DNA of 44,193 nt, the filler included, from Neodothiora populina (Eukaryota), in NCBI RefSeq assembly GCF_041146345.1. It is 2 parts of 2 records of this genome, joined end to end, with 100 filler letters (N's around TTAATTAATTAA, not from the genome) between each part and the next. Parts side by side here need not be neighbours in the genome. Positions count along the whole stretch, not along the records: positions 1 to 27,019 come from NW_027191412.1; 1 more part is not named here. One strand, given 5' to 3'. The notes beneath the pieces are model-generated. The model was not told the origin of the DNA and searched no databases. It saw nothing but the letters and a program-made list of their open reading frames with translations. A program made the position numbers and the translations under genes. Position 1 is the first letter of the stretch, and every line of letters begins with the position of its first letter. Below are positions 3,371-6,102 of this stretch, piece after piece.

Positions 3371-3624
3371 ATGGTAATATAGTATTCTTATTATATTATA
3401 GATGTCTAATAAGACACATACGTTGACTTTTAGAATATACTATTTAATTTTATTTAATTACATTATGTAATTTATTTAAATATTAAATTTAATTAATAAT
3501 TATTATAATTTAATATTAAAAAAAAAATAATATATATATATTATATTATTTATCAAAGTTTATTTTAAACTTTGAAGTATAGCTATAGGTTTTACAAAAT
3601 TTTACTTTAAACATACTAAAAAAA
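3371..3624 (+). repeat. Direct repeat A copy 1 (cox1 5' leader)
   Basis: Aligns by eye with 5858-6102; shared blocks include ctaataagacacata, gttgacttttagaatatactatttaattt and ttttaaactttgaagtatag..tataggttttacaaaa. Confidence 0.9.
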
Positions 3625-3756
3625 CAATTTAATAATAATTTTATTTTGCCCGTCGTTAATAATTTACAAGATTATAATTTAGAAAATATAAATAATTTAC
3701 GTAACTATTCAACAAAAGATATTAGTTCAGAATCAGATATAGCCCATGAAGGTACA

Positions 3757-5367
3757 ATGTTAGATTTTAAACAACCTACAGAATGACAAGAAAGATGATT
3801 TTTATCATCAAATGCAAAAGATATAGGTACTTTATACTTAATGTTTGCATTATTTTCAGGTTTAGTTGGAACAGCATTTTCAGTTTTAATTAGATTAGAA
3901 TTATCTGGTCCAGGAGTACAATATATATCAGATAATCAATTATATAATAGTATAATTACAGCACATGCTATATTAATGATTTTCTTTATGGTTATGCCTG
4001 CATTAATAGGAGGTTTTGGTAATTTCTTATTACCATTATTAGTAGGAGGTCCAGATATGGCATTTCCTAGATTAAATAATATTAGTTTCTGATTATTAGT
4101 TCCTAGTTTATTTTTATTTATATTCTCAGCTACTATAGAAAATGGAGCTGGTACAGGTTGAACATTATATCCACCGTTATCAGGAATACAATCTCACAGT
4201 GGTCCTAGTGTAGACTTAGCTATTTTTGGTTTACATTTAAGTGGTATTAGTAGTATGTTAGGTGCTATGAATTTTATAACTACTATATTAAATATGAGAA
4301 GTCCTGGTATACGTTTACATAAATTAGCTTTATTTGGATGAGCTGTTATTATTACAGCTGTGTTATTATTATTATCATTACCTGTGTTAGCTGGTGGTAT
4401 TACTATGATCTTAACTGATAGAAATTTTAATACTTCATTCTTTGAAGTAGCTGGTGGTGGTGATCCTATTTTATTCCAACATTTATTCTGATTCTTTGGA
4501 CACCCTGAAGTTTATATTTTAATTATACCAGGATTTGGTATTATTAGTACAGTTATTTCAGCAGCATCAAGTAAAAACGTATTTGGTTACTTAGGTATGG
4601 TTTACGCTATGATGTCTATTGGTGTATTAGGATTTATAGTTTGAAGTCATCACATGTATACTGTTGGTTTAGATGTTGATACTAGAGCTTATTTTACAGC
4701 TGCTACTTTAATTATTGCTGTACCTACAGGTATTAAAATATTTAGTTGATTAGCTACATGTTATGGTGGATCTTTACATTTAACACCTCCTATGCTTTTT
4801 GCATTAGGATTTGTTGTATTATTCACTATTGGTGGGTTAAGTGGTGTTGTATTAGCTAATGCTTCACTTGATGTAGCATTCCACGATACTTACTATGTTG
4901 TTGCTCACTTCCATTATGTTTTATCTATGGGTGCTGTATTTGCATTATTTAGTGGTTGATATTTCTGAATACCTAAAATATTAGGTTTATCTTATGACCA
5001 TTTTGCTGCTAAAGTTCATTTCTGAATTTTATTTGTTGGTGTTAATTTAACATTCTTTCCACAACATTTCTTAGGTTTACAAGGTATGCCTAGAAGAATT
5101 AGTGATTACCCTGATGCTTTCTATGGTTGAAATTTAATTAGTAGTATTGGTTCTATTGTTAGTGTTGTAGCTACATGATATTTCTTAACTATTATTTATA
5201 AACAACTTACAGAAGGTAAAGCTGTATCAAGATATCCTTGATTAACTCCACAATTATTTAGTGATACTTTCCAAGTATACTTTACTAGAAATAATAGTTC
5301 TTTAGAATGATGTTTAACTAGTCCACCTAAACCTCATGCTTTTGCAAGTTTACCTTTACAATCTTAA
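3757..5367 (+). CDS. cox1: Cytochrome c oxidase subunit 1, intronless; frame is open upstream to 3589
   Basis: [27 protein letters not shown]..., [12 protein letters not shown] 5365-5367. Confidence 0.95.
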
Positions 5368-5482
5368 TATTTATACATATATTATAATAATTAAAATAAG
5401 TTATTATATAATTACATATTTGAAATAAAAAAAAAATATAGAATTATCATAATTTTGATATATTCTTTTAATTATATTTTTT

Positions 5483-5545
5483 AATAATAACATTAAAATT
5501 AATAATTTTATAGTTATATATAAAACAATATAGATGTGATGTATG
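5483..5545 (+). repeat. Direct repeat B copy 1 (63 bp identical to the rns upstream region)
   Basis: aataataacattaaaattaataattttatagttatatataaaacaatatagatgtgatgtatg also at 19887-19949. Confidence 0.92.
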
Positions 5546-5700
5546 TAATCAAAAAAAGAAAAAAAAATATTTAAATTCTATATAACAATACAAATATAAT
5601 TTAAACACTAAAACTAAAATATACATGTTATTTTTATTTAATATATAAAAATTAGTATATATTAATAGTCTTATATATCTAAGATATATAAGTTAATCTA

Positions 5701-5774
5701 GGTAGATATAATTCAAATGGTAGAATATTTACTTGTGGCGTAATACATCCTAGTTCGATTCTAGGTATCTACCC
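5701..5774 (+). tRNA. trnH: tRNA-His(GTG)
   Basis: ttac-tt-GTG-gc-gtaa; acceptor ggtagat/atctacc. Confidence 0.9.
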
Positions 5775-5803
5775 TAACAATAAATAAGTATATTATTTTT
5801 GAA

Positions 5804-5881
5804 ATTATATAACTAAAAATGGTAAGATAGCATTTTAATTATATTATATAACTAAAAATGGTAAAATAGCATTCTTATTAT
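5804..5881 (+). repeat. 39-bp tandem duplication
   Basis: attatataactaaaaatggtaa(g/a)atagcatt... twice (5804-5842, 5843-5881). Confidence 0.85.
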
Positions 5882-6102
5882 ATTATAGATATCTAATAAG
5901 ACACATATGTTGACTTTTAGAATATACTATTTAATTTCATTTAATTACATTATGTAATTAATTTAAATATTAAATTATAATAATTATTATAATTTAATAT
6001 TATAAAAAAATAATATATTTATTATATTATTTATCAAACTTTATTTTAAACTTTGAAGTATAGATATAGGTTTTACAAAACTTTTAACATACTAAAAAAA
6101 AA
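5858..6102 (+). repeat. Direct repeat A copy 2 (leader of orphan ORF)
   Basis: Near copy of 3371-3624. Confidence 0.9.

Follow-up and report, generated by a model that had tools for sequence, protein, structure and literature searches.

A copy of the cox1 leader abuts the start codon of an accessory gene in a fungal mitochondrial genome and may supply it with cox1-type translation activation

The DNA analyzed here is a stretch of 44,193 nucleotides (nt) from NCBI RefSeq assembly GCF_041146345.1 of Neodothiora populina (hereafter the window), and from position 1 to ~27,100 it is a Penicillium-type fungal mitochondrial genome that uses genetic code 4. An accessory gene in this genome, an open reading frame (ORF) of 420 codons, is preceded by a paralogue of the non-coding 5′ leader of cox1, and this copy runs right up to the accessory start codon. 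It is our view, held with a probability of roughly 0.6, that the accessory gene uses cox1-type translation activation. Comparisons were made between the window's own sequence (W) and metagenome contigs of relatives (L001-L004 and L006). The two leader copies and the gene are as follows:

3350..3640, + strand: leader copy A, the cox1 5′ leader, 89% identical to 5840-6118
5840..6118, + strand: leader copy B, ahead of the accessory ORF, found by local alignment and blastn
6119..7381, + strand: accessory ORF P0001, 420 aa, between trnH and atp9

The duplicated leader

Local alignment of 3350-3640 with 5840-6118 gave 262 identical columns out of 293 (89.4%), with 15 mismatches and 16 gap columns. 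The alignment score was 417, as compared with 57 ± 8 and a maximum of 88 in 200 shuffles, and blastn returned the same pairing at E = 2.5e-101. A third leader copy was not found by blastn within the 44-kb window, where the remaining matches are AT-rich noise of ≤72 bits. Copy A is the entire non-coding cox1 leader, from ~40 nt past trnM to the probable start codon, while copy B extends from ~65 nt past trnH to ATG 6119 of the ORF.

A first-pass annotation of this DNA had described a diverged direct repeat at 3371-3624 and 5858-6102 and had proposed that the ORF carries a copied cox1 leader. The repeat is real, and the pairwise alignment places it inside the longer copies given above; in fact, what the ORF carries is a true paralogue of the cox1 leader, full to the start codon. 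The repeat had also been thought to end at a short shared reading, NILKK. This is not its true end, since weaker similarity runs for 16-18 nt more, to the start codon. It was conceivable, too, that the repeat was a misassembly. The order trnH-leader-ORF is seen on independent metagenome contigs (L002, L003 and L004/L006), which excludes that possibility.

The 5′ edge of copy B carries a short repeat of its own:

5804..5887, + strand: 39-nt tandem duplication, 2.2 copies, 93% matches

Direct repeats of 290 nt that lie 2.49 kb apart could recombine, and a small circle bearing cox1-trnH could then be looped out.

Conserved boxes and their spacing to the start codon

Seven leaders were lined up by start codon, namely those of cox1 from W, L003 and L004 and those of the ORF from W, L002, L003 and L006. 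In a seven-leader sequence alignment, discrete boxes are nearly invariant, and the AT-rich spacers between them vary by indels. The boxes and predicted hairpins of the window are:

3610..3624, + strand: start-proximal 15-nt box AACATACTAAAAAAA, copy A, at -33..-19 of ATT 3643
6086..6100, + strand: start-proximal box AACATACTAAAAAAA, copy B, at -33..-19 of ATG 6119
3416..3440, + strand: upstream box ACATAYGTTGACTTTTAGAATATAC, copy A, 25 nt
5903..5927, + strand: upstream box, copy B, with a single C-to-T change relative to copy A
3456..3472, + strand: hairpin 1, palindrome AATTACAT-T-ATGTAATT, copy A; of the seven pairs predicted, one has a compensatory change
3554..3574, + strand: hairpin 2, CAAAGTTTA-TTT-TAAACTTTG, copy A, closing pair covarying U-A / C-G across species
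6035..6055, + strand: hairpin 2, copy B, in which a G-to-C change breaks the middle pair

In four of the seven leaders, exactly 18 nt separate the start-proximal box from the start codon: W cox1 (ATT 3643), L003 cox1 (ATT 6216), W ORF (ATG 6119) and L003 ORF (ATG 9992). L004 cox1 has a spacer of 17 nt, and the L002 ORF one of 21 nt. The box is degenerate in the ORF leader of L006/L004, which retains the 18-nt spacer in a form almost identical to the spacer of L003 cox1. Elsewhere in the window AACATACTAAAAAAA does not occur, with up to 2 mismatches allowed. The upstream box has just two matches in the window at ≤3 mismatches, where none is expected by chance, and it is largely kept where aligned; the L004 cox1 leader reaches its 3′ end only, and the L003 and L006 ORF leaders differ from it at several positions. 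A separate observation is a G/C cluster, made up of G and C runs, that is inserted in the first conserved box of the L006 ORF leader (~265-300) and also in that of L004.

As RNA, the leaders are predicted to share a consensus structure of two hairpins and one long-range helix. Single-sequence folds gave z-scores of -3.6 and -3.2, values that palindrome-rich AT DNA can also give. An Rfam scan of 3300-6140 at E ≤ 1 returned trnH alone, neither leader matching a curated covariance model.

Another function that could be served by such boxes is transcription, in which case the repeat would be a duplicated initiation region (promoter plus leader), with cox1 and the ORF each heading a transcription unit of its own. 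Both copies do head a gene and directly follow a tRNA gene, and the boxes are specific to these two sites. Moreover, TTAGAA in the upstream box resembles the start of what we take to be the Neurospora mitochondrial promoter consensus. However, that resemblance covers 6 positions only, and no motif that occurs just twice can act as the general promoter of a 27-kb genome whose genes all share one strand. The box-to-start spacing of 17-21 nt in six of the seven leaders is what would be expected of a translation signal, and a promoter would not need it. A duplicated promoter therefore seems quite unlikely, and it is in any case compatible with the explanation favored here, cox1-type translation activation of the accessory gene.

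The in-frame reading next to the box

The first-pass annotation had noted that NILKK is in frame in both genes. This register is true of the window, where ATA 3613 lies 144 nt ahead of ATG 3757 of cox1 and ATA 6089 lies 30 nt ahead of ATG 6119, both in frame. The frame from box to gene is open in W and L003, in cox1 and the ORF alike. It is not, however, a conserved coding feature. In L004 cox1 the box does not share the gene's frame and has two stops after it, a TAA interrupts the spacer of the L002 ORF, and L006 is without an intact box; among the relatives, the order of leader and ORF is kept but the frame register is not kept throughout. NILKK is in frame because the 18-nt spacer amounts to six codons, and the reading between box and start is probably not translated.

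If translation of both genes did begin at the box ATA (3613 and 6089), the shared NILKK-type peptide would be a real common N-terminus. The open frame in W and L003 is in keeping with such a start, as is the fact that some COX1 proteins (P0055, P0076), one named Aspergillus entry being among them, begin MKKKK..., as if from an ATG in the equivalent A-run. The losses of register in L004, L002 and L006 speak against it, and the register itself comes automatically with an 18-nt spacer. Furthermore, the box-to-ATG peptides are not conserved (KNKYIKI, KIKQLNT, QHI*IFI), and all 11 aligned members of the ORF's protein family start at the Met that matches ATG 6119. Initiation at the box is consequently regarded as highly improbable.

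History of the duplication

A leader copy stands ahead of the ORF in four of four lineages. It is complete in W, L002 and L003; L004/L006 have part of it, including the 5′ boxes and the 18-nt spacer. The cox1 leader of the window itself matches ORF-upstream DNA at L002 802-1087, L003 9879-9973 (84%) and L004 2475-2587. The presence of the copy in four diverged lineages argues that the duplication is old.

The paralogous leaders of W are 89% identical, as against 79% (L003) and 83% (L004) for orthologues of its cox1 leader. Orthologues of the W ORF leader are 78% (L002), 68% (L003) and 70% (L006) identical to it, and the leader paralogues are 69% identical within L003 and 65% within L004. When the four sequences of W and L003 were compared site by site, 20-21 sites grouped them by species, 6-12 by gene and 4-5 otherwise, and the leader indel blocks fell one by species and five by gene. 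The L003 pair groups at 85/89 support in the leader tree, where this is the sole supported fork. Such a mosaic of sites and indels, taken with the likeness within genomes, argues that gene conversion keeps the copies alike, and the pattern as a whole fits an old duplication, with the copies later converting one another within each lineage. In W, both copies are nearer to the cox1-type leaders of relatives than to the ORF leaders of L003 and L006; the last conversion in the W lineage is suggested to have run from cox1 to the ORF.

The start of cox1

The position of the leader with respect to cox1 depends on where that gene begins, and two features are pertinent:

3757..5367, + strand: cox1, 536 aa when read from the first ATG, with TAA as stop, spanned by the Pfam COX1 domain
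3643..3756, + strand: conserved in-frame N-terminal extension of COX1 (ILPVVNNLQDY...NYST...)

Upstream of 3757, the cox1 frame resembles coding sequence and is open for 38 (W), 45 (L003) and 44 (L004) codons, with length differences that are multiples of 3 and a chance of staying open of 0.04-0.06 each. The extension (window 3643-3757; L003 6216-6351; L004 211-343) runs from I-L-(P/L) and has the common motifs ILP.(A/V)N..L and (N/D)YST. All 22 COX1 relatives examined, including Aspergillus nr/UniRef entries of 578, 580 and 587 aa, possess 35-65 residues ahead of ERWF. At 3757, W has the codon ATG, L003 has GTG and L004 has ATA, and the residue aligned to this codon among COX1 relatives is M, V or F, with V or F in annotated Aspergillus COX1 of 578-587 aa. 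Considering the open extension and the variability of this codon, ATG 3757 is most likely internal to cox1, and the true start is probably a non-ATG codon, either ATT 3643 or TTG 3646. L003 also has a cox1 intron of ~1 kb (7106-8142) where the window cox1 is uninterrupted.

The accessory gene and its family

The ORF protein is acidic (isoelectric point 4.15) and hydrophilic (grand average of hydropathy -0.96). It had been called an orphan, a description that no longer applies. Homologues in a large protein collection numbered 10 with E ≤ 0.01 among 8000 scored candidates (E 6.7e-188 to 2.1e-27), including orf459 of Penicillium solitum (UniRef G8I2R3, E 5.1e-32), and a profile search of 50% representatives gave 36 clusters at E ≤ 0.001. 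The ten family clusters that were looked up are all unnamed or "hypothetical protein", and several are on contigs of 27-30 kb. In an 11-sequence alignment of the family, the N-terminal part is basic and conserved, the acidic, repeat-rich middle varies, and a C-terminal block of ~100 residues is again conserved. The ORF occupies the same place, between trnH and atp9 and downstream of cox1, in L002, L003, L004 and L006 (L004 ends within the ORF).

W, L002, L003 and L006 keep the frame open over 372-467 codons; given the base composition, 420 open codons would arise by chance with a probability of ~4e-14. In-frame TGA, which here encodes Trp, occurs twice in the L002 ORF and three times in the L006 ORF and is absent from the window copy, which has one TGG. 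The GC content of the ORF, both overall and at third codon positions, matches that of core genes. Given the open frame, the TGA use and the core-like composition, the ORF is, on sequence grounds, a mitochondrially translated gene.

The protein itself diverges rapidly, with 30-46% identity across the four lineages. The ratio of nonsynonymous to synonymous substitution (dN/dS, Nei-Gojobori) ranges from 0.4 to 1.3 and is lowest in the C-terminal block (0.44-0.71). Between W and L003, dS is 0.58-0.66 for the ORF versus 0.09-0.28 for cox1/atp9, i.e., two to seven times as high, and dN of the ORF is about equal to its dS. The ORF changes about as fast as poorly conserved spacers, yet it stays open. 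Since dN/dS is ~1 overall, its use as proof of a real gene was dropped, and frame maintenance, TGA use and the conserved blocks were relied on instead.

Searches with the ORF protein found no Pfam family and no usable match in the ESM Atlas, and a DNA-motif search for more relatives in viral and genome contigs gave no matches. The AlphaFold2 model is poor (mean predicted local distance difference test score 45, predicted template modeling score 0.25) and consists mainly of two long helices. Within the gene there are also repeats:

6438..7078, + strand: in-frame tandem repeats in the ORF, of 18 nt x 6.8 (6438-6560), 6 nt x 13.7 (6842-6923) and 51 nt x 3.4 (6907-7078)

The related protein P0002 is without most of these repeat units (its identity to the window protein is 95% in the MAFFT alignment and 78% by BLASTP), and L001, 99.6% identical in DNA, appears to be without two of the 18-nt units, so that repeat copy number varies among near relatives. 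L004 has one extra T relative to L006 in a T-run just past the ORF ATG (2651-2665), a frameshift that may be a sequencing error or the mark of a pseudogene.

The first-pass annotation had further suggested that the ORF either arose through the expression signals of cox1 or parasitizes them, yielding a chimeric-leader gene. An origin by chimeric fusion is not borne out by DNA similarity past the start codon, as the score of 47 between the cox1 extension and the ORF was reached by 52 of 1000 codon shuffles and is not significant. Other windows of the ORF, in fact, score higher against cox1 than the start region does (up to 57). A DYNL/NYSTK likeness between the cox1 extension and the ORF N-terminus, seen by eye, was rejected on the same shuffles. 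What is copied from an essential mitochondrial gene is the 5′ flank of the ORF, and no core-gene fragment was found in its coding region.

How the copied leader might act

The mRNAs of filamentous fungal mitochondria are released at tRNAs (tRNA punctuation), and the 3′ end of trnM is presumed to be the 5′ processing site of the cox1 mRNA. Following processing of this kind, the cox1 and accessory mRNAs would carry the same leader elements. In yeast the translational activators of COX1 include Pet309 and Mss51, and Neurospora has CYA-5. By analogy, nuclear-encoded cox1-specific factors of the Pet309/CYA-5 and Mss51 types would also stabilize the accessory mRNA, and the same factors would place the mitoribosome on its start codon. 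The outcome would be a non-core gene that is translated where translation needs gene-specific leaders. In keeping with such a role, Pet309 footprints in yeast adjoin the COX1 start and lie >200 nt upstream, in the extract of that work available (PMC12916500).

It is also conceivable that the box at -33..-19 and the upstream boxes form the binding platform of the cox1 translational activator, with the accessory gene as a passenger and conversion from cox1 keeping its leader matched as both co-evolve. This more specific proposal is a tentative one, with a chance well below even. If it were true, translation of the passenger would keep pace with that of COX1, or the passenger would titrate COX1 activators, a natural leader-swap experiment, and the real cox1 start would be pinned to the non-ATG codon ATT 3643.

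Several results weigh against cox1-type activation through the leader copy. First, the ORF leader of L006/L004 is without most of its 3′ half, including an intact box, yet the L006 ORF is open, which means that the full leader is not indispensable. Second, support for the predicted structure is thin, compensatory change being confined to 2 of its 32 pairs, with a covariation term of +0.28. Third, whole leaders are 62-83% identical between species versus 90-94% for the atp9-nad3 spacer, and so are no better kept. Fourth, the W leader pair is not resolved as a group in the leader tree. Fifth, selection on the ORF, judged from its substitution rates, is weak beyond keeping the frame open. Finally, none of 24 sequencing runs (17 studies; 81-94% of sampled words) is on record as RNA.

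Some of these points would suit a repeat that is a functionless by-product of recombination, in which the duplicative event that created or relocated the ORF region chanced to bring along the DNA upstream of cox1 and occasional gene conversion has kept the copies alike. Gene conversion alone can yield 89% identity, L006/L004 have shed much of the copy and kept the ORF, the leaders are no better conserved than some spacers, and the ORF is weakly constrained. On the other hand, the copy persists in four lineages whose ORF proteins have diverged as far as described above, its boxes are nearly invariant while the AT-rich spacers change by indels, and it stops at the start codon, spaced from it just as the cox1 leader is. 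A mere by-product is thus considered unlikely, and translation of the accessory gene by cox1-type activation is still preferred.

Genomic context

The tRNA genes that precede the two leaders, and the downstream neighbor that fixes synteny, are:

3238..3311, + strand: trnM(CAU), the final tRNA of the cluster ahead of cox1 (ARAGORN, Rfam)
5702..5774, + strand: trnH(GUG) (ARAGORN, Rfam)
7511..7735, + strand: atp9

The full order at the locus is trnM(CAU), cox1, trnH, the 420-codon ORF, atp9, nad3 and cox2. The mitochondrial part of the window contains 26 tRNA genes, a mitochondrial small subunit (SSU) rRNA gene and a large subunit (LSU) rRNA gene that is divided between the ends and has an intron ORF, and its large ORFs are all on the + strand. 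Two trnD(GUC) genes (8358-8430 and 23610-23682) and three trnM(CAU) genes occur, and a tRNA-Gly with the unusual anticodon ACC (23422-23492) lies beside a normal trnG(UCC).

From ~27.1 kb on, the window is nuclear ribosomal DNA (rDNA) with eukaryotic SSU, 5.8S and LSU genes in more than two units. Mitochondrial DNA of ~27 kb (GC 0.10-0.35) abuts these units near 27,100; SSU, 5.8S and LSU each occur twice, followed by a third SSU that is truncated at the end, and the first SSU match (26751-28027) is ~520 nt too short. The junction resembles an artifact of assembly in which two high-copy molecules were joined, rather than biology.

Significance and comparison with known systems

Fungal mitochondrial mRNAs are each thought to need leader-specific activators, which raises the question of how new genes come to be translated in such a system. 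The present locus would be a natural and long-lived answer, in which the leader of an essential gene was copied to the start codon of another and kept matched by gene conversion. Three predictions follow for both Penicillium and Aspergillus. The box AACATACTAAAAAAA at -33..-19 is a candidate site for the activator, COX1 should have an N-terminal extension that begins at a non-ATG codon, and an unnamed acidic protein should be co-translated with COX1. Annotators should be cautious with ATG 3757, which is probably internal to cox1.

The closest relative of the gene itself is the orf459-type accessory gene of Penicillium, which shares protein homology, a position between cox1/trnH and atp9 and the lack of a known domain. 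In the portion of the literature at hand, P. chrysogenum has a single non-intronic accessory gene of 1,227 bp, and such genes are called "hypothetical" (Joardar et al. 2012, PMC3562157). From size alone this is probably the same gene, the L002 ORF being 1,224 nt including the stop. Published accounts, as far as their available text goes, treat the Penicillium gene as hypothetical only, and neither "upstream" nor "duplicat" appears anywhere in the main text of PMC3562157. No published description was found of a cox1-leader copy before the Penicillium ORF or of the COX1 extension in Aspergillus, in a search that left subscription journals (e.g., the P. solitum mitogenome paper) outside its range.

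A second comparison is with the chimeric ORFs of plant cytoplasmic male sterility, which use the 5′ flanks of atp or cox genes and are, as a rule, of recent origin, confined to one species and chimeric in coding sequence. Like them, the accessory gene is a non-core mitochondrial ORF with duplicated expression signals of an essential gene. Unlike them, it has no coding chimerism that could be found, and the arrangement is old and common to several lineages.

A third comparison comes from Phialocephala subalpina, where, in the sections available, ORF_01 is headed by a duplicated atp9 upstream region of 124 bp that is common to related species (Duo et al. 2012, PMC3434094). Both cases, on that text, are fungal mitochondrial ORFs behind a duplicate of a core gene's upstream region. 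In Phialocephala, as those sections have it, the whole of atp9 was duplicated and then interrupted, with the first 14 bp of atp9 kept, whereas here the non-coding leader alone was copied, it ends at the start codon, its donor is cox1 and the copies evolve in concert. The present analysis adds the exact start-codon boundary, the common box spacing, evidence that the copies undergo gene conversion and the re-read cox1 start.

Finally, the action of Pet309/Mss51 on yeast COX1 offers a parallel for the leader elements themselves, with an element ~30 nt before the start and others >200 nt upstream in the extract available (PMC12916500). In the window these correspond to the start-proximal box (-33..-19) and to the upstream box, which lies at ~-227..-203 of cox1 and -216..-192 of the ORF, and the likeness to yeast is positional only. 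By analogy with that system, we infer that one activator may serve two natural mRNAs, those of cox1 and of the accessory gene that carries its leader.

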